Part shown: piece by piece, positions 1-31,706 of the stretch | Layout of the letters: every line of letters starts with the position of its first letter | Numbering within the stretch: position 1 is the stretch's first letter | DNA from: Candidatus Levyibacteriota bacterium | GTDB taxonomy: Bacteria; Patescibacteriota; Microgenomatia; Levybacterales; UBA12049 | NCBI GenBank assembly: GCA_963716145.1 | Contig: OY970292.1 | Location: 268,104 to 332,103, forward strand | Reading direction: 5' to 3' | DNA: 64,000 bases | The notes under the pieces: generated by a model | Told to the model about the DNA's origin: nothing | Databases searched by the model: none | What the model saw: only the letters and a program-made list of their open reading frames with translations | Program-made: the position numbers and the translations under genes

Positions 1-1033
1 TCTTGATATTTGTCTGATATCAAACTTCTGAATATCTATCGGTTTTTTTCCTATAGATTCTAAAAAACTTGTGCATTTTTCATCGTATGTAATACCCAGA
101 AAATCAATTCTGTTGCGGTAAGAGAAGATAGCGGCGTGAAGACGCATAGAAATAAAAGAGTCCATAAGCTTAAATGAGGAGAAGAATTTAATAGGAAAAA
201 ATCCTGGGGGTACAATAATCATTGATCTTCTTATGTCTAAGTTTTTTCCAAGTGTTTTATAAATTTTTTGAGCAAATTGTTCATCATTAAAATAGCCATT
301 CTGATAGTCGCAAGCATAAAACCAAAAAGTCGTATCTTTATAATTTTTGTTTAACATTTTTTCTATTTCTGATAGAAGATACTTCTCTTCTTTAACACTG
401 TCAGGCTTAAGTAAAGCAAGTCCCATATTTTTCATTTTGGAATTATATTTTTTCTTAAAAAACTTATCTTTTAGTACTTCCGATTTTGCAGCAAGATTCA
501 TTAAGTAACTATTGTCTTTGTATAACCCTGCATGAAGTTTTTTGCTTTTCAGGTAGACAAACGAATGATAATCTCTGACTGTTACAATCTCAGCAAAACG
601 CAGCAAGTGTGTTGCAATGGATAGTATGATTGGATTTGAATTTTTATATATACCAAGACCCATTGCATATATTTTCTTTTTATAAATCCTAGGTATGATA
701 AAATATAAAAGCAGCATGTATAGCTGGTATATGAATCCAATAATTCCGCGGTCAGCCTTACATATGATTCCTCCACCACCTACAATTACAAAGTTTGACT
801 TTCTAACCTGTCTTATAATTGTCAATAACGAATATAATGAGATTGCTTTTACTTTATGAAGACTTTCTGTATTTTTTGGATTGCGGGAAACTACGCTTAC
901 TTTTAGATTTTTAATTTTACTCAGTTCATATATTTCTCCCGCCAGAATTGCTTCATCTCCTAAGTTCATAGCGCCAAAATTTCCAAAGATTACGCCACTT
1001 CTTTTTCCAGTTGGAAGGCTTTTTTTAATCATG
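1..1033 (-). CDS. polysaccharide pyruvyl transferase family protein (5' partial, runs off window)
   Basis: Hand translation of the minus strand from ATG at 1033 is open to position 1 (the stop lies outside the window, so it is absent from the ORF track). N-terminal GNFGAMNLGDEAILAGE and C-terminal MRLHAAIFS motifs are typical of the CsaB/WcaK pyruvyl transferase family. Confidence 0.55.
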
Positions 1034-1084
1034 TTTGCAAAATGAAATGTTTTTAAGTTTTTGTATTTATCATTTTTCATATAT

Positions 1085-1975
1085 TTATTTTTTCGTAGAA
1101 AGAGCTATGCTCCAGGTAGTCCCAATGTTGCTTTCTTTTCTAAACCTTGATAAAACATTTATAAAAAAATACGCTGAAAAGTTGATAGGGTTTGAAAAAA
1201 AACATTTTATAAAAGTAAAAAAATAAACTGATTTTGGAATATCATATTCCGGTTTTAAATCAAATTTAAAATATTTTTGCATTTCTAATTTAGAATTTTT
1301 AAACCGATTGGATTGTTTTAGGTGATCTGAAAAATTCCTGGGAGTTTTAAAATATATTGTCGCCTGGTCTATAAATTTAGGCTGAAGGCCCTTATCTCTT
1401 GCTGCAAAATAAAGATATGCATCGTTATTAACTATCTCATTTGGCACGTCTATTGATTTTGCAAAAGCTTGTGATAATCCTAAAAAACAACCTTTGAACA
1501 ACAAATAGTTGTTTCCTGTTCTCCATCTCTTACCAATCTCATAAGTTGCCAAAAGACCGGATTTCATAATTTTTCTAAATATACCTGATGACTTATGCGG
1601 CAATCCATTTATTCCAATAAGTCCGGACTTTTTAATACTAACTGAAGCTAAAATTTTTGATATTAATAGATTGTCGGTTATTATAATATCCGCGTCCGTC
1701 AAAAACAGAACTTCGCCTTTGAACATTTTAAATATCTGATCCAGCCTTGCTGATTTACCAATTCGTTCTTTACCAGTTACAAGTTTTATTTTTTTGCTGC
1801 TTATAGCCCCAACTTTATTAATTGTTGCATCAGTTGATCCATCTGAAATAACAATTATTTCAACAATTTTAAAATCATTCTCTGTTTGCGCGAGTATAGA
1901 CAGCAGCAGCTTTTTAATATTTGTTGATTCGTTATATGCTGGAATTCCAATTGAGACAGTAGTAATATTTTTCAT
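1085..1975 (-). CDS. family 2 glycosyltransferase
   Basis: 296 aa. N-terminal SIGIPAYNE...DGSTD motifs of GT-A/GT2. Co-oriented with neighbouring glycosylation genes. Confidence 0.8.
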   Translation of the reverse strand: MKNITTVSIGIPAYNESTNIKKLLLSILAQTENDFKIVEIIVISDGSTDATINKVGAISSKKIKLVTGKERIGKSARLDQIFKMFKGEVLFLTDADIIITDNLLISKILASVSIKKSGLIGINGLPHKSSGIFRKIMKSGLLATYEIGKRWRTGNNYLLFKGCFLGLSQAFAKSIDVPNEIVNNDAYLYFAARDKGLQPKFIDQATIYFKTPRNFSDHLKQSNRFKNSKLEMQKYFKFDLKPEYDIPKSVYFFTFIKCFFSNPINFSAYFFINVLSRFRKESNIGTTWSIALSTKK

Positions 1976-1984
1976 ATCAATAGA

Positions 1985-4957
1985 TTAGCTACCTGATACT
2001 AAAGACGCGTATGCTGGCTGAGTGATAGACACACTCTTAATGTTGTTGTCTATCAGCGCATGAAATTCCGATGCGCTTTTGTCCCAGTTGAAGTTTTTTG
2101 ACCACACTAGAGCATTTTTAGAAAGTAAATCTCTGTACTCATTATCTGTAATTAATTTCTTCATAGCTCTACTTAATTGTTCAATATTTTTTGGGTCAAC
2201 TAGTAAGCCTGTTTCTCCATCAATCACTGAGTCTATTAAACCGTTAACGCGGGATGCAATTACAGGCGTTCCATTTGCGTTGGCTTCTATGACTGTAATG
2301 CCCCATCCTTCAATTTGTGATGGCTGAACAACTACCCAGCTTTCCTTTAGCATAAGATTTTTTTGTTCTTCAGTAGCTTTGCCAACAAATGTGACGTTGT
2401 TCTCAAGCTTTAATTTAGACACCAATTTTTTAAGCTTAAGATAGCTTTCACCGGTCCCGATAATCGAAAGGGTGGCATTTTGATGGTCCGTAAGGACTCT
2501 TGCGAATGCTTTGATTGCAATATCTATGTTTTTATAATTTTTGAGTCTACCCAAATATAGAAAAGAAGGAGTGACTGTTTTTACGACTTGAGCATTGCTA
2601 TAACTATACACACCGTTAGAAACAATCTCTATATTTTCTGCAGCAGTAAATCCTATTTTAATTATCTCACGTTTGGATGATTCTGAAACTGTAATTATTT
2701 TTTTATTTTTGTAAACAATAGGCATAAGTTTTCCCTCTAAATATGCGGCTGTTTGAAGGAAGGGAAAGTGCAAAAACTCCCTAAATATTTCCTGATGCAC
2801 GTGATGAATTAAAAGTATCACAGGAATCCTTGAGTATAGAGGTGAGAAAAAGGGAATTCCATTTTCGCAATCTATAATCAGGTCAACTTTTTTCCTAAAA
2901 ATGAACATATAGTATAAAAAGGCAAAAAGATAAACCGTATATGTTCCGCCTCTTCTTATAATCTCAACCCCGTCCACCTTTTCATTTAATAGACTTTTGT
3001 TGTCATTTCCGCAAAAGACCGTTACCCGGCTTCCGGTTTTAACCCACCTTTTAGCAAGCTCATGTATATAAACCTCAGCACCTCCTGCGTAAATATGTCC
3101 CGTGTCACGCCAATTAAAAATTAAAATATGATTAAGTCTGTTCTGACTCTTTTCAGGGAAGTGCGTAGTAAGTAAATTGTAGATACTTAGAACGTTCATT
3201 TTCATACTTACAACTACTGAATTGAGACCGGTTACAATCAATTGAAGAACAGGATGAAACGTCATCGTTCCATCAAGTGCGTACTTTTTGTATTTGTTTG
3301 CTAAATGGAGGCCATGGGTAGTTTTTTCCCAATAATGAGGTTTTGCTATGAGCTGATATAAAGCAATTACTCCCGCCCAGCTCATCAATGCCCAGTAAAA
3401 GGGTATGAAAAAAACATATTTCATTAAGTCCCATTCTTTTTTTCTACCACAGGCGATCATATAGTAATAAACAAACAAAAAATTTCCAAAAATCCATGAG
3501 AATACAGCAATATAAGAAATAGGCGGGGTGTAAACTGTTTCAAGAAGCGGACCAGCGAAAGCATAGGAAGTAAAATAAAGTATGGTAATTATCCACATTA
3601 ACGGGTTTATCAGTACAAACAAAATTTTTCCACCTACAGTAAGCTGGAAAACTATATAGTGAAGTATGCCTTTTTCGTCAATAAAGTCCTTATAATTTCT
3701 TGTGTGTACCAAGTACGTCTGCATGTATCCTTTTAGCCATCTGGATCGCTGCCGTACCCAATTCTTTATTCCGCTCGTTGCTTCTTCTAACGTTGTTGAT
3801 TCAATAACAGCTGTTCGAAACCCTTTTTGAAAAAGTCTAACTCCTAAGTCAGCGTCTTCTGTAACGTTAAAAGGGTCCCATCCCTGAAGGGATTTTAGTC
3901 TTTCTGTTTTAAAATGATTACTAGTTCCACCGAGCGGGAGACTGGAGCTAAATGACTGTAATCCGGTAAGCATTATGTCAAACCACAGCGCGTACTCTAC
4001 TGTAAAAAAGCGTGTTAAGTAGTTTGCTCTCGAGTTATAATAATTAAGCTTTGCTTGAAGACACTGAACATCTTCAGGCACTGTCTGAAAACCAAGATAA
4101 GCCTTTTTAAGCTGCAAAGGGTCAGGAATATCTTCAGCATCATAAACCACTAAATATTCACCAACAGCCAAGTTTAATCCGTAATTACAGGCTTTTGGCT
4201 TGGTTTTGGGAAGAGAAGGAGGGACTATAATTTTCCTAATGTAGGAAGGTAGTATCAATTTATCAAGTATTTTAATTGTTTCTTTATCATCTTCCTCCAG
4301 AAGAAGCAGAACGTCCAATTTTTCTTTTGGGTAATCAAGATTGTTTATAGCTTCTAAGAATTGAGGAAAAATATGCGCTTCTTTATAAAGTGGGCATAAA
4401 ACCGAATAAATCGGGAGTTTTGATTCGTCAATCGATGCCAAATCAGAATTGCTAAATGCCAATTCTCTAGGGCGCTGCATGCTGCTGTATACAACAGCAA
4501 AATTGAAAATAACATCCGCAAAATAGAGAATGCTAACAATTGCGGCAACAAGCTTCAGCGTCAAAATTGGGGAGACTACTAGGCCCAAAACTATAGTAAT
4601 CGCGATCCCTCCAATTGCAGCTTTTTGGATTAGACTAAATGTTTTGGCAGCAGAAAGTGAAAATGGAAGCGTGGTATGGGTGATATATTGTTGCGTGTTG
4701 TAGACAATTCCAGCTCCTGTCATGGAGGAAGCAAATTCAGGAAGTATTGCAGTCACTTGTGGCTTTGAATCTAATTTACCAAGAATTATTGCTGCATAAT
4801 TGCCATACAACTCTCTTAACTTCTCAATTATTGTTAGAAAGTTTTCAGCAGTATTTGCTATCTCAGATCTTAGTGAAGAAATAACACTTCCTTCTGTTCG
4901 TGAGAAATCAACTATAACAACTGCGTTGTTTAGGTCAAAAGACCGTATTATGCTCAT
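1985..4957 (-). CDS. large membrane glycosyltransferase: processive GT2 (QxxRW) fused to C-terminal GT4 domain
   Basis: 990 aa. N-terminal TM segments followed by a GT2 core (DAEDIPDP, TEDADLG, QRSRW), more TM helices, then a GT4 domain (EGWGITVIEANANGTPVIASRVNGL...GETGLLV). Confidence 0.8.
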   Translation of the reverse strand: MSIIRSFDLNNAVVIVDFSRTEGSVISSLRSEIANTAENFLTIIEKLRELYGNYAAIILGKLDSKPQVTAILPEFASSMTGAGIVYNTQQYITHTTLPFSLSAAKTFSLIQKAAIGGIAITIVLGLVVSPILTLKLVAAIVSILYFADVIFNFAVVYSSMQRPRELAFSNSDLASIDESKLPIYSVLCPLYKEAHIFPQFLEAINNLDYPKEKLDVLLLLEEDDKETIKILDKLILPSYIRKIIVPPSLPKTKPKACNYGLNLAVGEYLVVYDAEDIPDPLQLKKAYLGFQTVPEDVQCLQAKLNYYNSRANYLTRFFTVEYALWFDIMLTGLQSFSSSLPLGGTSNHFKTERLKSLQGWDPFNVTEDADLGVRLFQKGFRTAVIESTTLEEATSGIKNWVRQRSRWLKGYMQTYLVHTRNYKDFIDEKGILHYIVFQLTVGGKILFVLINPLMWIITILYFTSYAFAGPLLETVYTPPISYIAVFSWIFGNFLFVYYYMIACGRKKEWDLMKYVFFIPFYWALMSWAGVIALYQLIAKPHYWEKTTHGLHLANKYKKYALDGTMTFHPVLQLIVTGLNSVVVSMKMNVLSIYNLLTTHFPEKSQNRLNHILIFNWRDTGHIYAGGAEVYIHELAKRWVKTGSRVTVFCGNDNKSLLNEKVDGVEIIRRGGTYTVYLFAFLYYMFIFRKKVDLIIDCENGIPFFSPLYSRIPVILLIHHVHQEIFREFLHFPFLQTAAYLEGKLMPIVYKNKKIITVSESSKREIIKIGFTAAENIEIVSNGVYSYSNAQVVKTVTPSFLYLGRLKNYKNIDIAIKAFARVLTDHQNATLSIIGTGESYLKLKKLVSKLKLENNVTFVGKATEEQKNLMLKESWVVVQPSQIEGWGITVIEANANGTPVIASRVNGLIDSVIDGETGLLVDPKNIEQLSRAMKKLITDNEYRDLLSKNALVWSKNFNWDKSASEFHALIDNNIKSVSITQPAYASLVSGS

Positions 4958-5072
4958 AATTAGACACTTTAGGCAGGGGATTTTAAAACTATTATATCTT
5001 ATAGTATCATTTTTGTCAATTAGGAGCGTTTGAAGACAAATCGGTGGTATTCAAACCTAAAATATAGCAATA

Positions 5073-7160
5073 TTAGAGTAGAATCATCTTCAGAGTTTTA
5101 AGCTTTACAGTTAAGCTGTTAGTGTTTGAAAATAAAAATGAAATTTTTTCTTTCTCTCTTGCGAATCTTAATGCAGTGTAAGCAGTCATAGTAGATAAAA
5201 GTATCCAAATATAGTTAAAATTTCCAGTAGTGCTTGATTTACTTGCTGAGTAGGGCAAGAGATAACTTGCCTTATAAGGATTTAGTTTAATGGTGCTTGC
5301 GCCGGCAATTAGTTGATTGTTTTCTACAAGCGTAGCAGTGACTCCTAATACATTAAAAATACTGTCAGAAACAGCCGATATGCTCTCACCGAGTGGCCCA
5401 ACGCTCCCCGTAGCCGTAGCTCTTGCTGTATATTTACCGTTAACTGTTTGTGACAAAACAAATCCTGTTGAGACATGAAGTGTTTTATTAGCTGGAATAT
5501 CCCCCAGGTTAAATTCCGCGCCGCCGGCATCTTTTCCATCTTGAATAAGACGAAGATTTAGCTTTGCTCCATAAATCTTACCACCTCCCGTATTTTTGAC
5601 ATCCACAAAAAATGTAACTGTGTCTCCTGGATTTACGTGATCAGCTACATTATTTTTTGAATCTATTGCCAATGCTCCGCCACTCTCCAGACTTGAATCG
5701 CTGTTATTTGCTGCATTTACTTTATTTTCAGGTTCAGACTGAGCTAGCTGATTATCTGAGGAGGAGTTTGCAATTTGTTTTTGCCCTCCTATATTTCCAT
5801 GCCAATTACCAAAAATGTTCAAAAATCCAAAAAAACCGGTAGAATTTATAAAATTACTGTTAATAAAGTTAATCAGTGAAACCGCGCTAAAAGCATTTCC
5901 GCTGGTTATTTTACCGGATCCTCCATTTATATTGTTTCCACCAGTATTGGCGTTTGAGACAATTTTATTGTTAACAATTGCAGTATTTAAGATTTCCGTG
6001 TCAGGACATAAATCGCAAGTACTACTGTTTTGGTTTTGATCTGAAAGAGCTAAGCTTTCTCCGCCTGGCTGAGCACCAAATTCATACCAACCCACAAAGC
6101 TGCCATCCCAATCTCCCAAAATATTTATAAATAAAGATTCTATGTTTGAATTAACAAAATTTTGATTAACCAAATTCAAAACATTAACAACACTTTTTGC
6201 GTCTCCTGTATTATTATCCGAGCTAGCTGATGCTGTATTTTCTCCGGAATTTGCGCTTGAGTCTACGGTATTGCCTACAACAGCACTGTTTTGAGAATCT
6301 ATGCCTGAGGGACAATCAATGCAATCTTGGTTTTCTGGATTTTCAGGCAGGATTATGTTTCCATTTAAGCTACCGAAAACATTAATTGTTACGATGTGTA
6401 TTGTTGAATTTATAATCGTGAAGTTTACCTTGTTGAGAAGTGAAACAGTAGAATAAGCATTTCCGGTAGATATACTTGAATTCCCTTCACCCGAATCTAC
6501 AATATTATTGCCTGTGTTGGCTGTTGACACAATTGTATTTGTGACATATGCAAAATTACTAACATTCACAACAGACATATTTATAATAGGATCATTTGGA
6601 TGATCCTGAATTGCCTGAGTTGCCAACTTATAAGGATCTGAGAGATTCAAATCACCATTTTGATCTACATAAATATTTATAGTCTGCATCACAACGCTTG
6701 AGTTAACAGAATTCGAGTTGACATCATTTTCAACGCTGGTTACCGAAACAGCATCTCCTGTCGTACTTGTTGATTCTGAGTTTTGAGAATTAGAATTATT
6801 ATTACTCGCGTTATCAGATTTTGGTGAAGACCCCGATGATACATTATTGCCTCCGGTATTTGAAGTCGTAGTCGCTTCAGTACTGACAACTGCCGTATTA
6901 TCATTTGTAGCAGGTGGCGCCTCTGTCGGCGTCACAGACTCATCAAATAATGCAGGGGTTGGCGTAGGGGATACCGAATCATCTGGAGTTGGACTTGGGG
7001 TGTCAGTTGGTGTATTAGTTGGAGTTACTGCAGGTGTTTCTGTAGGTGTGAGGTCAGAAGCTACTTCCTGAGCGTAGGAAATAACAGGATAGCCGGCAGA
7101 ATAAAACAGCATCAAAACCGTAAGACTAATTGCTAAGTATTTTTTAAATATTTTTTTCAT
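5073..7160 (-). CDS. secreted repeat-containing surface protein with putative C-terminal cell-wall sorting signal
   Basis: 695 aa. Signal peptide followed by a Thr/Pro-rich linker (TPTETPAVTPTNTPTDTPSPTP). Three ~70-aa N/S/T/G-rich repeats (NTGxNN...SGxG...SGNAxSxVSL.N..N). A DUF11/CARDB-like segment. C-terminus is LPYSASKS + hydrophobic stretch + RFAREKEK. Confidence 0.6.
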   Translation of the reverse strand: MKKIFKKYLAISLTVLMLFYSAGYPVISYAQEVASDLTPTETPAVTPTNTPTDTPSPTPDDSVSPTPTPALFDESVTPTEAPPATNDNTAVVSTEATTTSNTGGNNVSSGSSPKSDNASNNNSNSQNSESTSTTGDAVSVTSVENDVNSNSVNSSVVMQTINIYVDQNGDLNLSDPYKLATQAIQDHPNDPIINMSVVNVSNFAYVTNTIVSTANTGNNIVDSGEGNSSISTGNAYSTVSLLNKVNFTIINSTIHIVTINVFGSLNGNIILPENPENQDCIDCPSGIDSQNSAVVGNTVDSSANSGENTASASSDNNTGDAKSVVNVLNLVNQNFVNSNIESLFINILGDWDGSFVGWYEFGAQPGGESLALSDQNQNSSTCDLCPDTEILNTAIVNNKIVSNANTGGNNINGGSGKITSGNAFSAVSLINFINSNFINSTGFFGFLNIFGNWHGNIGGQKQIANSSSDNQLAQSEPENKVNAANNSDSSLESGGALAIDSKNNVADHVNPGDTVTFFVDVKNTGGGKIYGAKLNLRLIQDGKDAGGAEFNLGDIPANKTLHVSTGFVLSQTVNGKYTARATATGSVGPLGESISAVSDSIFNVLGVTATLVENNQLIAGASTIKLNPYKASYLLPYSASKSSTTGNFNYIWILLSTMTAYTALRFAREKEKISFLFSNTNSLTVKLKTLKMILL

Positions 7161-7216
7161 TTTTAAGTTTTAAGTTTTAAGTTTTAAGTTTTAAGTTTTA
7201 AGTTTTAAGTTTTAAG
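7161..7216. repeat. heptanucleotide tandem repeat (TTTTAAG)x8 immediately upstream of surface-protein start codon
   Basis: Eight perfect 7-nt units counted directly. They abut the minus-strand ATG at 7160 (read as CTTAAAA repeats ending at ATG). Confidence 0.9.
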
Positions 7217-7225
7217 TTTTTAAAT

Positions 7226-7277
7226 TCTTCTGTCCCGGGGAGAACGCCCAAAGGGCTTTGTCTCCCCGAAGACAGAA
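7226..7277. promoter_or_regulatory. compound stem-loop (nested 7-bp + 5-bp + 4-bp stems)
   Basis: TTCTGTC...GACAGAA outer arms, CCGGGG/CCCCGA inner arms, GCCC-aaa-GGGC tip. Located between the stop of the 136-aa repeat protein and the heptamer repeat. Likely a terminator or regulatory hairpin. Confidence 0.4.
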
Positions 7278-7300
7278 AACAAATATAACATTAGCTAATA

Positions 7301-7711
7301 TTAGTTAATGTTTGTATTAACTACTGTTGTTACACAAGCTGTAGAGCTTGCATTTCCTGTGCTTGATCTATTGCTGGAAAGTAACCCAGCTCCTCCTGTT
7401 GTTAAATTTAAACCAGTGTTTGAAGCAGTATTAACGTTGTTTCCTACTACTCCTACGTTTGTATTAAAACCAGATCCAGTGTTTGTATTTGCAACCGTTG
7501 TTACTGTTGCGTTTGAGCTTGCATTTCCAGTTCTAGATCTATTGCTGGAAAAAAATCCACCAGTTCCCATTGTTGCGTTTAAACCAGTGTTTGAGCTGGT
7601 GTTAACGTTATTTCCAACTAAGGCAAAGTTGAAATTTGCTGCAAATGATGGAACTGCAGATGCAGCTAGCATTACCGCTGCTGCTCCTGTTGCAATTAAT
7701 TTTTTGATCAT
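7301..7711 (-). CDS. small secreted protein with two ~52-aa N/S/T/G-rich repeats (paralogous to repeats of 5073..7160)
   Basis: 136 aa. Signal peptide (AAAVMLAASAVPSFA). Two internal repeats GNNVNTxSNTGLN..T.G.GG..SSNRSxTGNASS.A.VTTV.NTN. Strong SD (AAAGGAGGTGA) 7 nt upstream. Confidence 0.6.
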   Translation of the reverse strand: MIKKLIATGAAAVMLAASAVPSFAANFNFALVGNNVNTSSNTGLNATMGTGGFFSSNRSRTGNASSNATVTTVANTNTGSGFNTNVGVVGNNVNTASNTGLNLTTGGAGLLSSNRSSTGNASSTACVTTVVNTNIN

Positions 7712-7765
7712 TATATTTCACCTCCTTTCGTTTTGGGATAGTTTCGTTTAAACGAATCTAAACAC

Positions 7766-7801
7766 TAAAAAACCGCTGTCTGATTTCTCATACAACGGTC
7801 C
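7766..7801 (-). terminator. rho-independent terminator downstream of sortase gene
   Basis: Minus-strand hairpin ACCGTTGT...ACAGCGGT followed by TTTTTT, 170 nt after the sortase stop. Confidence 0.5.
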
Positions 7802-7969
7802 GCAAAAAATAATTGTGTTATTCTTTTCTTCATAACCTGCCTGAATTATTAGATTTTAATTAATAGATTTTAAAATGATCCGTTGGGGCAGAATTAGCGA
7901 GCAGCGTGTATATTTTTACACCTAAAACGATTTTCTGTCAATAGCCTATAAAGTTTTATTAATTTTCTC

Positions 7970-8578
7970 TTACAGATGCGGGGCAGCGGTTACAATTAAT
8001 CTTTTTTCGTCATTGTAACCTGTACATGTGTAAAGAGTAAGCGTTTCTTTTTTTGTGGGTTCAATAGCCTCCTTTTGATTAGGATATACTGCCGCTATTT
8101 TATTGACTTTGTAGGAATACCATTTATTTTTGGTAAATACATAAATACTATCTCCATTTTTTATATCTTTTAAATTGTAAAATAGTCCCGCTCGAGCATG
8201 AGCAAAAATTACAGTATTTGAATGTTGACCCGGTGTTCCACTTCCTTCACCATATGAAGCATAAGTTTCTGATGTTTCCCAATAACCGTCAACAATTTTT
8301 GCAGGGATAACTTTAAGGTCAATATCAGACTTAGGGATGATTACTCTGACCGGGATATTTTGACTACTTGCTGAGTTAAGCAATTCAGGACTAATAGTGA
8401 TGGGGTTTTTGCTGACACGCTTTGGTAAAAATGAAGGGATCAACAAAACAGTAAGAGCAAGTAACAACAAGATTACTCCAATTATTTTATTTGCAATCAG
8501 ATAAAAAACATTTCTTTTTGGAGGTAAGACCTTTTTCTGAGTATGTTGCTTGGAGTTTTTAGATTTACTCTTAGGCAT
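7970..8578 (-). CDS. sortase (transpeptidase)
   Basis: 202 aa. N-terminal TM anchor. Catalytic His (VIFAHAR), TLxTC motif (TLTLYTCTG) and downstream Arg (RLIVTA). Confidence 0.85.
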   Translation of the reverse strand: MPKSKSKNSKQHTQKKVLPPKRNVFYLIANKIIGVILLLLALTVLLIPSFLPKRVSKNPITISPELLNSASSQNIPVRVIIPKSDIDLKVIPAKIVDGYWETSETYASYGEGSGTPGQHSNTVIFAHARAGLFYNLKDIKNGDSIYVFTKNKWYSYKVNKIAAVYPNQKEAIEPTKKETLTLYTCTGYNDEKRLIVTAAPHL

Positions 8579-9002
8579 TCTTGATGAGGAACTTGCGAGC
8601 TGCCAAGCTTAATCCAAGCGCCGCAAACAATTGCGCAAATTCAATGTATCCGTTTTGCTTTGAGCTTGTATGAGAAAGCCCCTGGACTGCTTGAATAGCC
8701 GGCTGAGGAGAACTCGACCTTCCATCTGATCTACCATCGGACCTTCCATCTGATCTACCATCTCCCGGACCACCTGTATTATTGTTAGATGGAGGAGATG
8801 TTGGTGTTGGTGTGGGAGCTGAGGTTGGTTGAGCTAAAGTAGGAGTAACACAGTCGCAAGGAGGTATTGTAATCGGAAGTGATGGCAATATTATAGTTGG
8901 GACATTGCAATCATTACACTGTGCAGTAACCGTATTGGATGACAAAACTGGCGCAAGCCATAATGCAGCAAAAATTAAAATAAGAGCGAAAAGTTTTTTC
9001 AT
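8571..9002 (-). CDS. secreted Cys-rich protein with PT linker and (DGRS)4 repeat
   Basis: 143 aa. Signal peptide. Four Cys in CNDC...CDC. PT-rich linker. Four exact DGRS repeats. C-terminal LSHTSSK + hydrophobic stretch + ARKFLIK tail. Overlaps the sortase start by 8 nt (operon). Confidence 0.55.
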   Translation of the reverse strand: MKKLFALILIFAALWLAPVLSSNTVTAQCNDCNVPTIILPSLPITIPPCDCVTPTLAQPTSAPTPTPTSPPSNNNTGGPGDGRSDGRSDGRSDGRSSSPQPAIQAVQGLSHTSSKQNGYIEFAQLFAALGLSLAARKFLIKNA

Positions 9003-9124
9003 AACAAAAAAGTTAATGGGCAGAGTTTGGGGCAGTTAGTTTTTGGAGTATATTATAAAATTTCCTATTTGTCAACATCCAATTTAAGTTATATAATAAA
9101 AAGCATAATTGATTTTTACTCTGT

Positions 9125-9562
9125 ATGAAAAAACTTCTACAAAAATATAATCACAATATTCCATATGTCACACTTGTCTTAACAATTGTATCCACCCTGG
9201 CTAGCCTTTATTTTAGTGAGGTTTTGCACCTTATTCCGTGTGTTCTTTGCTGGTATCAAAGGATCGCGATGTATTCCATGGTTCCCGTTATAACAGTTGG
9301 AATCCTGTTAAAAGATAAAAATCTTCCCCTCTATATTTTACCCCTGAGCATAATTGGGTGGGGGATTGCGCTTTATCACAATCTATTGTATTACCATTTT
9401 CTGCCGGAAAGTATTGCACCATGTACTGCAGGTGTGTCCTGCACAAACCGATTTTTTCAAATCTTTGGATTTATTGATATTCCGCTAGGATCATTTATCG
9501 CCTTTACATTAATTAACATTTGTATGATAATATATCTTAAGAATTTAAAAATTAAAAAATAA
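9125..9562 (+). CDS. bdbC: disulfide bond formation protein B (DsbB/BdbC family)
   Basis: 145 aa with four TM segments. IPCVLCWYQR motif and a second Cys pair (CTAGVSC). Strong similarity to Bacillus BdbC. Confidence 0.7.
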   Translation: MKKLLQKYNHNIPYVTLVLTIVSTLASLYFSEVLHLIPCVLCWYQRIAMYSMVPVITVGILLKDKNLPLYILPLSIIGWGIALYHNLLYYHFLPESIAPCTAGVSCTNRFFQIFGFIDIPLGSFIAFTLINICMIIYLKNLKIKK

Positions 9563-9565
9563 ATT

Positions 9566-10219
9566 ATGAGTCAAGAAGCAAAAGTATTAACAGGTATAGG
9601 AATAGTTACGATTCTAATAATAGGATTTGGTGCTTTTTTCCTTGGGGGTAGTTCTACCCCTGAGAAACCTGCTCCTCCGGCAGATGCCAAAGTCTTAGTC
9701 CGCCCAGACAGCCATAAAGAGACATCGCCGTCCGCTAAAGTGATTCTTGTTGAATTTGGGGATTTCCAATGTCCTGCTTGTGGTGCTTCATATCCGATTG
9801 TAGAGCAGCTTCTTCAAGATTACAAAGGTAAAGTCAATTTTGTGTTCAGAAATTACCCTTTACCTATACATCCGAACGCTATGATTGCCGCCGAGGCCGC
9901 GGAAGCGGCAGGAGCTCAAGGAAAATACTTTGAGATGTACCAGGCGTTATTTTCTAACCAAAAAGAATGGGCGGAAAGCAAAAACCCACTGGAGATTTAT
10001 CTAAAGTATGCAAAAAATATCGGACTTGATACAGATAAATTTAAAAAGGAAGTTGAAGATAAAAAGTACGAATCAAGAATTAAAAAAGACCAGTCTGACG
10101 GCAACGCGCTTGGTGTAAATTCCACGCCCACATTTTTTATAAATGGAATAAAACAAACCGGCGGCCTGCCATATGATCAATTTAAAGTAAAAATAGATGA
10201 CGCACTTAAAAGTAAATAA
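9566..10219 (+). CDS. DsbA-family thiol:disulfide oxidoreductase (thioredoxin fold)
   Basis: 217 aa. N-terminal TM anchor. FGDFQCPACG active-site CxxC motif. Confidence 0.8.
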   Translation: MSQEAKVLTGIGIVTILIIGFGAFFLGGSSTPEKPAPPADAKVLVRPDSHKETSPSAKVILVEFGDFQCPACGASYPIVEQLLQDYKGKVNFVFRNYPLPIHPNAMIAAEAAEAAGAQGKYFEMYQALFSNQKEWAESKNPLEIYLKYAKNIGLDTDKFKKEVEDKKYESRIKKDQSDGNALGVNSTPTFFINGIKQTGGLPYDQFKVKIDDALKSK

Positions 10220-10228
10220 TTTAATAAA

Positions 10229-10747
10229 TTAAGGATTGAACTTGGAGTTTTTCTTAACCAGCTTTACAGTGCTTACAATCTCCATTATTTTTCCGTCTCT
10301 TGTCTCAATTTGAGTTGCGCCGGTTTTTTCCTTGTAATCCGCCACCAGATCTGAAAGAGTTTTATTTTTTTCGCTGATGTCTATTCTCAAATCCTTAACT
10401 TTCTGAGCCAAAAGAGCAACAGAGGGTTGTGAGCCGATTTGTTTTTTAACAGAAAGCTTTGCTTTTACAGCTTCTTTAGCTTTCTCCGAGTTCTCTCTGT
10501 AAATAGGATCATTTTCAAAAGAGTCTTCATACATTTCTCTTTGTGCTTTTAATTCTTCACGTAACTTTGCAATTGATTCAATATGGTTTTGGATCAGTTC
10601 ATCAAGACTAATCACAACAGCCGCTTCATCCGAACCGTTAACAGCAACGTTTGACGCAGCCGAGTTTGACTCGGACGTTGCATCTCCTACTTCATTATCA
10701 ATCGCGTCTGACGCGACTGCTTCGATAACCTTGTCGTCTTGATCCAT
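10229..10747 (-). CDS. hypothetical acidic coiled-coil protein
   Basis: 172 aa, D/E-rich with heptad-like segments. No recognisable catalytic motif. Confidence 0.4.
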   Translation of the reverse strand: MDQDDKVIEAVASDAIDNEVGDATSESNSAASNVAVNGSDEAAVVISLDELIQNHIESIAKLREELKAQREMYEDSFENDPIYRENSEKAKEAVKAKLSVKKQIGSQPSVALLAQKVKDLRIDISEKNKTLSDLVADYKEKTGATQIETRDGKIMEIVSTVKLVKKNSKFNP

Positions 10748-10816
10748 AGATCATTAACTATACTAGAGATTACGTAGCCAAGCAAGCGGCAAAATGTCAT
10801 CTGTTATAATGATTTT

Positions 10817-11446
10817 ATGAGCAAAGAGGAGAAGGTAAAAGAGATAATAAAAAGGTTGTTAAAAGTGTATCCAAATCCAAAAACTGCTTTACAGTTTTCA
10901 ACCCCACACGAATTACTTATCGCGACAATCCTTTCCGCTCAAGCCACTGATAAGCTTGTAAATCTTGTAACTCCAGAGTTATTTAAAAAATATAAATCTA
11001 TCAAGGATTTTGCGGATGCACCGGTTGAAGAAATTGACGCAATGGTTAAGCGTGTAAATTTTCACTTCAACAAATCAAAGTCCATAAAAGGGGCAGCTCA
11101 AATGATTATGCAAAAATTTGGAGGAAAAGTACCTGACAACATGGAAGATTTGGATTCTCTACCCGGAGTTGCTCGCAAAACTGCCAACGTTGTTTTGGGA
11201 AATGCTTTTCATATCGCCGCGGGGGTAGTTGTAGATACTCACGTTATGCGTTTGAGCCGCAAGCTGGGACTGACTGATCAAACTGATCCAGTAAAGATTG
11301 AACTCGATATTATGAAAATTGTCCCAAAAGATAAGTGGATCGATTTTTCTCATTTGTTGATCAACTTCGGCCGTGAATTTTGCCCAGCCCGGCCTCATAC
11401 ATGCGGCGACTGTCCTTTGGGTGATTTATGTCCGGATACGAATTAA
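10817..11446 (+). CDS. nth: endonuclease III
   Basis: 209 aa. HhH-GPD region (GVARKTANVVLGNAF) and C-terminal 4Fe-4S cluster CPARPHTCGDCPLGDLC. Confidence 0.9.
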   Translation: MSKEEKVKEIIKRLLKVYPNPKTALQFSTPHELLIATILSAQATDKLVNLVTPELFKKYKSIKDFADAPVEEIDAMVKRVNFHFNKSKSIKGAAQMIMQKFGGKVPDNMEDLDSLPGVARKTANVVLGNAFHIAAGVVVDTHVMRLSRKLGLTDQTDPVKIELDIMKIVPKDKWIDFSHLLINFGREFCPARPHTCGDCPLGDLCPDTN

Positions 11447-13313
11447 TTGGAGTTTGTTTGCGCCTTCATTCTTCTTGCCTCAACTTCATCTAAGATTGTT
11501 TTTCGCATTCTGACATTTTTTGGTGTAACTTCAACCAGTTCATCATCACTTATGTATTCCAGAGCGTCCTCAAGCGTCATCACACGCGGAGCGTCAAAAT
11601 GATCAGCTTTCCCATCTCCTTTTGAGCGCATATTTGATAATTGCTTGGTTTTACAGACATTGACACTCATATCTTCTGATCGGGAATTCTCACCAATTAC
11701 CTGTCCTTTATAGACTGGCACTGCTGAGCCGATAAATAATGTTCCTCTTTCCTGAGTATTTAGAAGCCCGTATAAATTACTCACGCCTGTTTCGTGTACC
11801 ACAAGAGAACCATGTTCGCGTTTCATTGGCTCACCTGAGTCTTCATCGTATTTATAAAAAGTTGTGTTGATTATTCCCAATCCTCTTGTATCTGTAATAA
11901 ATTCAGATCTATAACCAAAAAATGCGCTTGTTGGAATAATAAATTGAAGATAAACAATATTATTTACATCAGTTGTCATATCTTCCATTATTGCTTTACG
12001 AAGCCCCATTTTTTGCATGACAACCCCTGAATAATCTTGAGGCGTCTCAATAAAAATCCGCTCAAAAGGAGCCATCTTTTTGCCATCAACCACTTTTAGA
12101 ATAACTTGCGGACGTCCTACTTGAAATTCATATCCTTCACGCCTTAATCTTTCAATAAGTATTGCCAGATGCAGCTCTCCGCGGCCCGATACCATCCATG
12201 TTCCATCAGGCTGATCCTCAACTCTTAATGCTGTATCTGTCTCAAGTTCCTTATGCAGCCTTTCGTTGATTTGCCGTGAAGTTTTGAATTCCCCTTCTTT
12301 GCCTGCAAAAGGGGAGTCGTTTACTCTGAAAACCATTCTGACAGTTGGTTCTTCAATTGCCAATAATGGCAACGCGATCGGCTCTTCAACAGAAGCGATG
12401 GTCTCTCCAATAGTTATATCCGGAATTCCTGAAATTGCTATGATATCCCCGGCTGACACCTCTTTTGCGTCAACTCTTTCAAGTCCTTTAAAAGTCATAA
12501 GGGATGTTAAGCGGTATTTTTTCTGAACACCTTGTCTATTTATGTGAATTACATCCTGCCCGGACTTAACTGTTCCGTTATAAACCCTGCCTGTCGCGAT
12601 TCTGCCCTTATAGTCATCTCTTGAGAGAGTGGTAATAAGTATTTGTAGTGGTTTTTCAGCATCCCCGCTTGGTGGCGGCACATTCTTCAGAATTGAGTCA
12701 AAGATTGGGAAAATATCTGTCATTTTTGAAAGATCATCCTCAAGTCCTGCTTTTCCTTCTTTTGCTGAAGCATATACAATGGGAAAATCAGCAGTATCAT
12801 CATCTGCACCAAGTTCTATAAAAAGATCCAAAGTTTTATCGAGAACTTCGTGAATCCTGGCATCGGGCCTGTCAATTTTGTTGACAACTACGATTATTTT
12901 CAATTTTTTCAGCAACGCGTGCTTGAGAACGAACCTCGTCTGCGGCATAGGACCTTCTTTCGCGTCTATTAGAAGTAAGCATCCATCTGCCATGGTAAGA
13001 ACACGCTCAACTTCTCCACCAAAATCTGCATGCCCCGGGGTATCAATAATGTTTATTTTGTAGAATCTTGTCCTGAGCTTGCTGAAGGATTCCAGTCAAC
13101 AGAGGCATTTTTGGAAAAAATTGTAATTCCTCGCTCTTTTTCAAGCTCATTACTATCCATGATCAGATCAGTTCCTGAAACTTCTTTATTGAGATCTGTT
13201 TTTGATTGTCGCAAAAGTGCATCAACCAGAGTGGTCTTTCCGTGGTCAACGTGGGCTATAATTGCGACATTTCTGATATTCATAATAAATAACCTCGCAC
13301 TTCGCGAGGCCAC
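11443..13313 (-). CDS. typA: translational GTPase TypA/BipA, split by a 1-nt frameshift in this assembly
   Basis: N-terminal ORF 13053..13313 carries the G1 motif ([12 protein letters not shown]). C-terminal ORF 11443..12993 continues [15 protein letters not shown]...NKIDRP...C-terminal BipA domains. Adding one A to the A4 run at 13056-13059 restores a continuous BipA frame. Confidence 0.85.
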
Positions 13314-30444: not shown

Positions 30445-31706
30445 CTATCCCTCACAGCAAGCTTTGCAAACACCCATGAATTTCTTCGCCACAGACTCCC
30501 AGCTTAGATCCTGGACGTTTTCATAGACTTCGCGACTCACCTTTTTATATTCCTTCTCATCCGACAACAACTTATGAATTTTCTGAGAAAGCATCAGAGG
30601 ATTGTTGGAGGAAGTCACCAGATGCTTGTGTTTTTTGTCAATCAGCCCAGAGACACCGGCCGCGTCTGTCGCGATAACCGGCGTGCCGCAGGCCATAGCT
30701 TCAAGCGCCGTCATCCCGAAAGATTCATAATGAGAGGGCATAACTACCATTTCCGCCGCCGCATAATAGCGTTGAAGATCTTTTTGCTCTTTCCTACCGA
30801 CAAATATTACAGAGGTTGAAATATTCAGCAGTTTTCTTAAAGTTTCCAAATTCTGAAGCTCATGAGACCACATCTTTTGCGCGTGAGACACATCTCCGCC
30901 AACAATCCAAAGACAAAGCGACGGATCCGGTATCTCTCAATTAAGATTTTTAACGCGTAAAGCAGTACATCAACACCTTTGAGAGGTTCAATTCTTCCAA
31001 CAAAGAGAATAATTTTGTGCCCCAGATCAGCTCCGATTTTCCTTTTCGCGCTATTTTTGTCCATAGGATGAAAAATCTCTAAATTTATTCCGGGAATCAG
31101 AACTTGAATTTTTTCTCTCGGGCAATCATAAAGAGTTGCAAGATATTCAGCATCATTTTCACTTGTCGCGATTATTCTTTCTGCTTTCCCAACCAAATCC
31201 AGCTCTGTCTCAATTCTCTGAATAGTTTCTTTTTCCTCACTTCCACGGGCAACCAAATTTTTCATGAGGGCTAGAGTATGAAAAGTCATAAGCATTGGGA
31301 GGCTGAATTTTTTTTTAATATCAAGACCGACAATTCCTGATAAGTAATAATGACAGCTCAGTAAGTCGTATTCCCTGTTTTCTTTCTCAACAAATTTATA
31401 AAAGTTTTTTAAGAATTCCGGAATATGATTTAAGAGCATTTTTGGTGGGATATACTTTTGCGGACCTGAAGGCAAATGAATCACTCTCAAATTTTTCATA
31501 ACCTGAACAATTTTGGGACTTTTTTCGCTTTGGGAGCGTGTAAAAATGTCAATTACATAACCATTTCGCGCCAGTTCTTTGGAAAGCTCAAGAACATACA
31601 CGTTCATGCCGCCGACTTCAGAGCCCTCATCAGAAAGGGGACAAGTATGATAGGAGACTACAGCCAATCGCTTATTTTGTTTATCCTGAACTTGCTGAAT
31701 GGACAT
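30445..31706 (-). CDS. GT4 glycosyltransferase (MshA-like), split by frameshift in this assembly
   Basis: N-terminal ORF 30837..31706 has GGMNVYV and GRIEPLKGVDVL. C-terminal ORF 30445..30891 has ESFGMTALEAMACGTPVIAT. Adding 1 nt at about 30928-30936 (minus-strand TACCGG/GAGAGA) gives continuous ...ILIERYPDPSLCLWIVGGDVSHAQ... Confidence 0.8.

Follow-up and report, generated by a model that had tools for sequence, protein, structure and literature searches.

The rep136/big695 pair of secreted repeat proteins and its envelope-gene neighbours in a Levybacterales contig

Chaplins are surface proteins of two kinds, short secreted and long tethered, which share one domain and assemble together (PMC5618241). 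In ultra-small cells of the candidate phyla radiation (CPR, or Patescibacteria), cryogenic transmission electron microscopy revealed a periodic surface layer and pili-like appendages, the constituent proteins of which were not named (PMC7906910). A CPR-wide survey highlights type IV pili, sortase and a DsbA-like oxidoreductase, and the repeat-protein family treated below is absent from it (PMC6744442). Much of bacterial diversity belongs to the CPR, most of which depend on contact with other cells. Here we describe the gene pair rep136/big695 and the envelope genes next to it in Candidatus Levyibacteriota bacterium (Patescibacteriota; Microgenomatia; Levybacterales; UBA12049). The DNA analysed, referred to as the window, comprises 64,000 nucleotides (positions 268,104 to 332,103 of contig OY970292.1, assembly GCA_963716145.1); it has a G+C content of about 36% and sits within a contig of 1.14 Mb. 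All positions given without a locus name are those of the window.

rep136 and big695 are an undescribed pair of secreted repeat proteins that occurs across the Microgenomates. In the window the two genes are accompanied by a sortase gene, the gene of a short Cys-rich protein (cys143), a divergent DsbB/DsbA gene pair and a cluster of glycosyltransferase (GT) genes, and the parts of this island differ widely in evolutionary range. The original prediction had combined them into a single module for a glycosylated (possibly pyruvylated), disulfide-stabilised and sortase-anchored S-layer or pilus-like structure. Its gene list agrees one by one with the map of open reading frames (ORFs), coordinates and strands included, and all listed genes are real as judged from ORFs, Pfam and NCBIfam. 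The explanation that we favour, and hold to be moderately probable, is that the region consists of four separately organised envelope units rather than one machine, with rep136 and big695 forming a two-component surface assembly. Homologs of the window proteins were found in Levybacteria, Beckwithbacteria, Woesebacteria and other Microgenomates. Literature on CPR sortase motifs, CPR S-layer proteins and metaproteomics yielded nothing on these families.

The rep136/big695 pair

The rep136 gene (7301..7711, minus strand; ORF, family hidden Markov model (HMM) and AlphaFold2 model) is preceded by a strong Shine-Dalgarno sequence, AAAGGAGGTG, and encodes a signal peptide (cleavage between SFA and A) followed by two repeat modules. 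The protein contains a single Cys and ends in VVNTNIN, with neither a hydrophobic segment nor an anchor at its C-terminus. The big695 gene (5073..7160, minus strand; ORF, family alignment and AlphaFold2 model) encodes a signal peptide, a Thr/Pro-rich tail, four all-beta repeat modules, a CARDB-like Ig domain (residues 497-604 in the AlphaFold2 model), a disordered spacer, a transmembrane (TM) helix at about residues 646-668 and a conserved cytoplasmic tail with helices. Two CxxC pairs are present (C280/C283 and C382/C385). The module common to both proteins, in two copies in rep136 and four in big695, reads N.A.V.N.V.T.ANTG.N...G....I.TG.A.....V.N.VNT.

Pfam and NCBIfam scans gave no match for big695, rep136 or cys143, and member-by-member Pfam scans at E up to 1 (86 small-family and 53 big-family proteins) did not yield a consistent family. 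The big695 family comprises at least 192 proteins, every one of them unannotated, and its Thr/Pro-rich tails are conserved. An exhaustive HMMER search recovered 197 representative clusters of the rep136 family; a word-indexed homology search with rep136 gave only 2 matches. Neighbourhoods of big695 were collected at first from 4 loci and then from 59 loci of species-representative genomes. Where enough upstream sequence was available (45 loci), a small repeat protein detected with an iterated HMM was encoded directly upstream of the big gene and in the same direction in all but one case (44/45). With its presence in nearly every sampled Microgenomates lineage and the signs, given below, that one partner is very highly expressed, the pair is a concrete candidate for the CPR surface layer or appendages.

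AlphaFold2 models of both proteins were built from the family alignments. They show all-beta modules, each opening with an unusually long strand (about 23 residues in rep136). The mean predicted local distance difference test (pLDDT) score of the big695 model was 73, with 85-95 in the module cores, and the only structural matches were to CARDB (3idu, E about 1e-3). The best rep136 model reached a pLDDT of 81.5. When the big-family profile was compared with PDB sequences, the sole match was a low-complexity Pro/Thr (PT) stretch.

big695 is predicted to be a type-I membrane-anchored surface protein. L[PA]xT[GSA] ahead of the TM helix was found in none of 119 big-family proteins, and beyond the helix the family has a conserved stretch of about 30 residues (ending ...EK...LRMFLL); because a sortase motif is missing and the tail after the helix is conserved, big695 would be permanently anchored in the membrane. 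Many modules are followed by Cys pairs (CxC or CxxC), yet none is present in 13/44 small-family and 15/49 big-family proteins.

A GC-rich stem-loop (7226..7279, minus strand; minimum free energy -36 kcal/mol, z -4.9) lies directly 3' of the rep136 stop codon. Its core is GGGGAGAC...GTTCTCCCC, with the flanks TTTTCTGTC and GACAGAAGA, and it lacks a U-tract. Among 60-nt windows it is the most stable on its strand in the 64 kb (-35.0, the next being -27.3), and a hairpin of this type occurs there once. The counterpart hairpin ranked first in stability in 30 of 36 related loci (60-nt windows, loci of 13-22 kb), and 40 of 42 intergenic gaps contained a strong hairpin (median z -5.8). An Rfam search of positions 1-12000 found no known RNA family. 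In the sister clusters described below, a long hairpin and an A-rich leader are kept after the first repeat-protein gene, whereas ordinary short-stem terminators with U-tracts precede the sortase genes. The stem-loop is therefore regarded as a distinct element, and an assignment as a generic terminator was rejected on account of its single occurrence in the window and the canonical U-tract terminators elsewhere in the sister clusters. In fimbrial operons, stable 3' hairpins are known to follow major-subunit genes.

Between the hairpin and big695 lies a perfect array of the heptamer AAAACTT (mRNA sense; 7161..7220, minus strand; TRF score 120, 100% matches). Its 8.6 copies reach the big695 ATG and form an A-rich leader without a Shine-Dalgarno sequence. 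L001, an independently assembled copy of this sequence, is broken within the array, and A-rich, repeat-like leaders 3' of the hairpin were seen in several other loci; the heptamers may make the leader prone to strand slippage or phase variation. The small gene has a 5-mer Shine-Dalgarno core in front of it in 40/44 loci, the big gene in 11/44. Hairpin and Shine-Dalgarno asymmetry together point to a small protein made in excess and a sparse anchored protein, and thus suggest an abundant subunit with a scarcer anchor, as in the chaplins. A promoter-like site (TTGACA-18-AAAAAT with TG; 7912..7941, minus strand), matching the consensus at 10/12 positions in a consensus scan, lies 5' of rep136.

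Under the four-unit explanation, rep136 would be exported by Sec, remain unanchored and probably be abundant, while big695, with its four matching modules, would be held in the membrane by its C-terminal TM helix. Free rep136 may then dock on these modules and extend from them, giving a tethered fibre or coat on the principle of short and long chaplins or of CsgA and CsgB, with the stem-loop and the A-rich leader devoid of a Shine-Dalgarno sequence setting a high ratio of subunit to anchor.

The chaplin system appears to be the closest functional analogue of the pair. Like the Streptomyces chaplins (short ChpD-H and long, sortase-anchored ChpA-C), the pair combines a short secreted protein with a long, tethered, multi-module partner; an LAxTG-type sortase is encoded nearby, and the sister clusters have an LPxTG-anchored multi-module version. 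Unlike chaplins, the window proteins and the 86 small-family and 53 big-family members gave no match to PF03777 (E up to 1), the module is about 55-100 aa long and rich in Asn, Thr and Gly (the chaplin domain has about 40 aa and is hydrophobic), and the long protein of the window is TM-held rather than sortase-held. As the chaplin domain is absent, the pair does not belong to the chaplin family, and the likeness is one of architecture.

Curli (CsgA/CsgB) and Fap fibres resemble the pair in their repeats rich in Asn, Gly, Ser and Thr, in the predicted long beta-strands and in the division into a major subunit and a cell-associated partner. FapC fibrils were also the nearest PDB matches of the rep136 model, at a level that is not significant (Foldseek E 0.49-0.72, probability at most 0.07). 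In contrast to curli, Fap and TasA, neither family has matches to the Curlin_rpt, Fap or TasA families of Pfam, and these monoderm-like CPR have no outer membrane and no channel of the CsgG or FapF type. A more far-reaching proposal is that the periodic surface layer or fibre-like appendages of ultra-small CPR cells are made of rep136, big695 and their Microgenomates relatives through self-assembly of the undescribed all-beta module, possibly as a functional amyloid, that the stem-loop sets the stoichiometry, and that the VLG box at 16 residues from the TM helix (see below) is a new processing or sorting signal; this can be put forward only tentatively, and we rather doubt it. Further leads are the protein module without a match in Pfam or PDB, the conserved stem-loop unlike ordinary terminators, and a variant sortase signal.

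Several other genes recur 5' of the small/big pair: one for a subtilisin-like S8 protease of 443-487 aa (recognised by motifs), one for a secreted protein of about 110-134 aa and one for a DUF2292 protein of about 55-75 aa. Genes upstream of the pair are located at 7427-9244 in L003, 7675-9345 in L005, 8942-9121 in L004, 8525-9201 in L007, 3720-3914 in L074 and 3802-3993 in L075.

Many of the pair-bearing TPA_asm contigs (L009, L014, L031, L033, L034 and others) are recorded as 'uncultured Gammaproteobacteria bacterium', with Bathyarchaeia, Bacteroidetes or Bacteroidales in the titles of single ones. These titles from outside the Microgenomates look like placeholders or binning errors.

Sortase and cys143, GT cluster and DsbB/DsbA

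The sortase gene (7970..8578, minus strand) encodes 202 aa, with an N-terminal TM helix (residues 32-50) and the catalytic residues His127 (FAHA), Cys185 (TLTLYTC) and Arg193 (KRLIV). It exceeds the cutoffs of PF04203 (81.7 vs 26.6 bits) and TIGR01076 (54.7 vs 39.35), whereas all NCBIfam class models remain below theirs: class C 55.3/160, SrtD 51.2/140, class E 47.0/160, class D 46.9/165, class GN 32.0/158 and class F 30.8/166.

The gene for cys143 (8571..9002, minus strand; an ORF overlapping the sortase gene by 8 nt) encodes 143 aa in the order signal peptide, CxxC and CxC (C29/C32 and C49/C51), PT linker, (GRSD)x4, VQG box, LSHTS (residue 109), hydrophobic helix and basic tail (RKFLIKNA). 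The hydrophobic helix and the RK tail are in place, but the pentapeptide reads LSHTS, and no Pfam or NCBIfam sorting-signal model matched. This is the sole ORF of the 64-kb window with a credible sorting signal. At about 20 sortase loci, the upstream partner mostly ends in VLG[ALV](S/T)..., L[AS]xT[GS], a hydrophobic helix and a basic tail. At the position of LSHTS, partners from Woese-, Gottesman- and Beckwithbacteria have LADTG, LAGTG or LAATG, the second sortase pair of the sister clusters has LASTG, and Levybacteria-like genomes have LSSTS or LSTTSG. It is to this second sortase that the window sortase is orthologous (E 1e-25 to 1e-30; 34-41% identity). Given this orthology and the lack of any other credible signal, cys143 and not the repeat proteins is the likely sortase substrate; LSHTS is likely a degenerate LAxTG-type signal. 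The two genes would form a dedicated cassette of substrate and enzyme, with cys143 as a short stalk protein that is cleaved at LSHTS and then linked to the cell wall.

The original prediction had a sortase-anchored surface structure. For rep136 and big695 of the window such anchoring is not supported, neither having a signal. In the sister clusters, however, a repeat-module protein with a C-terminal LPSTG or LPVTG, TM helix and basic tail is encoded just upstream of a different sortase, so that the clade does have module proteins of the sortase-anchored kind.

In 82 of 119 big-family proteins the C-terminal TM helix is preceded, at a distance of 16 residues (interquartile range 15-17), by a [VI]LG[ASTV] box, and the sortase partners have a VLG box at equal spacing, often duplicated. 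The corresponding positions are 617-622 (LIAGAS) in big695 and 105-108 (AVQG) in cys143. Sortase genes were present in 22/59 loci of the big695 family; where the 6-kb flanks were complete (29 loci), 12 had one and 17 had none within 6 kb. In 938 kb around the pair there were 23 sortase genes, most of them at a distance of no more than 2.5 kb and 21/23 co-directional.

The closest described counterparts of the sortase locus are the housekeeping-type class E SrtE/LAxTG systems of Actinobacteria, with which it shares a membrane-anchored sortase, the His-Cys-Arg triad, a substrate gene directly upstream and partner relatives with LADTG, LAGTG, LAATG or LASTG, a TM helix and a basic tail. It differs in the degenerate LSHTS, in the extra and sometimes duplicated VLG box before the motif, in a class E score of 47 bits vs 160, and in the fusion of partner and sortase in one lineage (L005). 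The sortase catalytic domain is there joined in frame with a repeat module, a PT linker and a VLGLSATSG signal, so that enzyme and substrate-like partner make up a single chain of 313 aa (12349-13290).

The (GRSD)x4 stalk of cys143 is encoded by a 12-nt tandem repeat (8716-8763, residues about 80-96), and relatives contain GDGRSDG-like stretches.

The GT cluster begins with a fusion gene (1985..4957, minus strand) for a protein of 990 aa with a GT2-synthase-like part (PF13632/PF13641, residues 184-490), a GT4 part (PF13439/PF00534, residues 625-949) and about five TM-like segments. It is followed by the genes for a GT2 of 296 aa (1085..1975, minus strand; PF00535, E 2e-19) and a pyruvyl transferase (1..1080, minus strand; PF04230, E 7e-24), the final three or so codons of which lie past the left window edge. 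This third gene of the cluster is identical to a 362-aa gene in L001, in which the cluster runs on past that edge with a PF01522 polysaccharide deacetylase, a polytopic protein of 1070 aa (about 16-18 TM-like segments) and a membrane-tethered protein of at least 322 aa (about 325). The 1070-aa protein gave no match to PDB sequences and a weak one to the LA_3751/LA_3752 putative-GT model (E 3e-14, 52.7 vs a cutoff of 200). It is encoded by one gene in the source genome (L001, 8073-11285), L075 and L076, and by a pair of genes, each for about 540 aa, in L069 (14442-17709), L074 (15843-19050) and L077 (19633-22826). Pyruvyl transferase and deacetylase are fused in L075 (13874-15769) and L076 (13903-15825).

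At least 7,986 proteins belong to the fusion family at E<1e-50, for which the Joint Genome Institute (JGI) label is 'XagB'; a metagenome scan with the fusion returned 6 loci, 2 of them orthologous. Matches to the CelA and PgaC/IcaA models are partial and below the cutoffs (PgaC_IcaA 45-47 bits vs 422). The SdgA model scored 70.6 bits against the GT4 part, with a cutoff of 800, and none of the oligosaccharyltransferase or protein-specific GT families (PglL, PMT, SdgA/GtfA type) reached its cutoff. In its content the GT set looks more like polysaccharide synthesis than protein O-glycosylation. It resembles pgaCB/icaAB loci for poly-N-acetylglucosamine (PNAG) and xagB-type loci of Xanthomonas in combining a membrane GT2 of the PF13632 type with a deacetylase, and JGI labels are XagB or cellulose/PNAG-synthase-like. 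It departs from PNAG loci in equivalog scores far below cutoff and in the extra fused GT4, the pyruvyl transferase and the 1070-aa and ~325-aa proteins. The product would most likely be a partly de-N-acetylated, pyruvylated surface polysaccharide.

A promoter-like element (4972..5019, minus strand) within the 115 nt that precede the fusion gene matches the sigma-70 consensus at 12/12 positions. The TTGACA-17-TATAAT (5019..4991) lies within the conserved ACTATAAGATATAAT and is followed by a CCTGCC box (4977..4972). T(T/A)GACA-N9-ACTATAAGATATAAT and CCTGCC are also present in L074 (about 9940-9990), L075 (about 9940-9985) and L076 (about 9940-9995), nearly unchanged in sequence despite fusion-protein identities of only 63-72%; L069, L049 and L068 have the related motifs GTACTATAAG and CTGCC. 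The conserved string could be a promoter plus a possible operator in the 5' untranslated region. This element suggests that the GT cluster is a transcription unit of its own, which speaks against the single module originally proposed.

The DsbB/DsbA genes are divergent from cys143, with a promoter-like pair in between (9047..9097, both strands; 11/12 on each). DsbB (9125..9562, plus strand) is an oxidoreductase of the DsbB/BdbC type of 145 aa (PF02600, E 2e-13; NF002849, E 6e-31, below cutoff) with CVLC at residue 39 (C39/C42) and with C100 and C106. DsbA (9566..10219, plus strand; 217 aa; PF13462, E 8e-32; PF01323, E 7e-16) is a membrane-tethered thioredoxin-fold protein with CPAC at residue 69. 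The two are best read as a general oxidative-folding pair. Since Cys pairs are missing in many members of both repeat families, the Dsb pair plausibly serves cys143 and big695 and is not intrinsic to the assembly; it would oxidise the Cys pairs of exported proteins such as these two.

CPR genomes are enriched in DsbA/MdbA-like proteins, and the CPR oxidoreductase has been linked to type IV pilins and VKOR (PMC6744442). The pair is like BdbC/BdbD and MdbA/VKOR of monoderms in having an adjacent membrane DsbB-like and a tethered DsbA-like protein with the expected CxxC. It is unlike the CPR oxidoreductase of the literature in that the partner is DsbB, that the neighbours are sortase-related and repeat-module proteins, and that the adjacency is limited to one clade.

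Conservation of the island and rival explanations

The block of Dsb, surface-protein, sortase and GT-cluster genes recurs in four related contigs (the sister clusters L069, L074, L075 and L076), with divergent DsbA in L074-76 and no visible Dsb genes in L069. The order is divergent DsbA (plus DsbB in L074), several secreted proteins, sortase, GT fusion, GT2, pyruvyl transferase, deacetylase, proteins of about 1065 and 327 aa, a protein of about 180 aa and a second sortase. The block of about 19 kb is intact, although the genes to its left and right are not the same in L074, L075 and L076. Homologous clusters thus do co-occur elsewhere, contrary to what would have refuted the original prediction, and the arrangement goes beyond chance for this lineage. 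In view of the gene order kept in four relatives, one clade truly conserves the earlier module as an island. Beyond this clade it dissolves: homologs of DsbA, DsbB and pyruvyl transferase were found in 0/59 Microgenomates loci of the big695 family, and a GT directly downstream in only 5/59. One conserved-looking island may thus mix a deeply conserved core with clade-specific neighbours, which is a lesson for annotation.

Identity to the window proteins in the sister clusters was 85% for nth, 83% for DsbB (in L074), 62-71% for DsbA (at the equivalent divergent position in L074-76), 46-72% for the GT-cluster proteins (63-72% for the fusion, 46-59% for GT2 and 51-64% for the pyruvyl transferase, the latter at the matching position in all four contigs), 34-41% for the sortase and 25-27% for big695; cys143 and rep136 had no BLAST-level match. 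With 25-27% or no match as against 46-85% for the enzymes, the surface cassette has either undergone replacement or far outpaced its flanks in divergence, which fits exposed proteins under selection. In the clade of the window the four units would be kept adjacent as an island, with the surface-protein genes turning over faster than the surrounding enzymes.

The single module of the original prediction, in which the GTs would O-glycosylate the Thr/Pro linker of big695, is unlikely in our estimation. The synteny is in its favour: block and divergent DsbA are conserved in L074-76, and the block without visible Dsb genes in L069, despite different flanks, and orthologs of the GT fusion lie directly 3' of repeat-protein genes in the window, L049, L050 and L069. 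It would also accommodate the LPxTG repeat-module protein beside a sortase in the sister clusters, the conserved Thr/Pro-rich tails and the 1070-aa polytopic protein, which, if the weak match to a putative membrane GT is taken at face value, could act outside the membrane. Yet the wider loci lack Dsb and pyruvyl transferase genes and mostly a downstream GT, a promoter-like element of its own precedes the GT cluster, which stands without repeat proteins or Dsb genes in the distant fusion orthologs L068 and L077, neither repeat protein of the window bears a sortase signal, and the proteins without Cys pairs indicate that disulfides are not intrinsic. Anchoring of an S-layer via pyruvylated secondary cell wall polymers (the CsaB system) was rejected: a CsaB-like pyruvyl transferase is encoded, but no S-layer homology (SLH) domain for binding a pyruvylated polymer was found on big695, rep136 or cys143 or across the two families.

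Alternatively, big695 may chiefly be an adhesin by which an episymbiotic CPR attaches to its host, with rep136 as a soluble accessory or decoy and no fibre or coat being formed. The layout of big695 (membrane anchor, Ig-like CARDB stalk, repeat modules and distal disordered tail) would suit such a role, the fast divergence of the surface cassette (25-27% vs 46-85%) is as expected under selection by host or phage, and CPR cells attach to hosts via surface appendages (PMC7906910). The strict 44/45 pairing with a small protein of the same module and the asymmetry in expression signals are, however, typical of systems of subunit plus anchor, so that we consider this reading improbable as a replacement for the two-component assembly; adhesion and assembly are not mutually exclusive.

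That the genes are unrelated neighbours, with recent common ancestry alone accounting for the conserved block, is highly doubtful. The sister genomes are indeed fairly close, as the values for nth and DsbB show, and L075 keeps nth and cc172 beside DsbA as the window does; but the flanks of L074, L075 and L076 differ around an intact block, every gene encodes an exported, membrane or envelope-building function, and sortase genes are enriched around the pair across many lineages. A pilus of the Gram-positive type, in which the sortase covalently joins rep136 or big695, was rejected as very improbable: a sortase is present in 22/59 loci and the best-scoring NCBIfam class model is that of the pilus-polymerising class C, but its 55.3 bits are far under the 160-bit cutoff, rep136 has no sorting signal or C-terminal TM helix, an LPxTG-like motif occurs in 0/119 big-family proteins, 17/29 full-flank loci are without a sortase within 6 kb, and Pfam pilin and Gram_pos_anchor matches are lacking.

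Several points weigh against the four-unit explanation with its two-component assembly. The five AlphaFold2 models of rep136 are uneven (pLDDT 81.5, 70, 69, 67 and 44), and abundance, polymerisation and localisation of the proteins are all deduced from sequence. The VLG box shared with the sortase partners hints that big695 could be cut by the sortase or another protease instead of being permanently anchored. The stem-loop, being without a U-tract, is not a canonical terminator, and an attenuator, a 3' stabiliser and a processing site are all candidates for its role. Finally, four of the five GT-fusion orthologs with an upstream flank adjoin a repeat cassette, and a functional link between the glycan and the repeat proteins has to be reckoned with.

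Other features of the window

The translational GTPase TypA/BipA is represented by two ORFs on the minus strand (13053-13313 and 11443-12993), split by one frameshift at about 13050-13090, after FSKNASV. An error in sequencing, decay to a pseudogene and programmed frameshifting might each account for the split. A short GT4-like ORF (30445-30891, minus strand) resembles the fusion protein (phmmer E 6e-13) and may be a GT fragment or a small GT.

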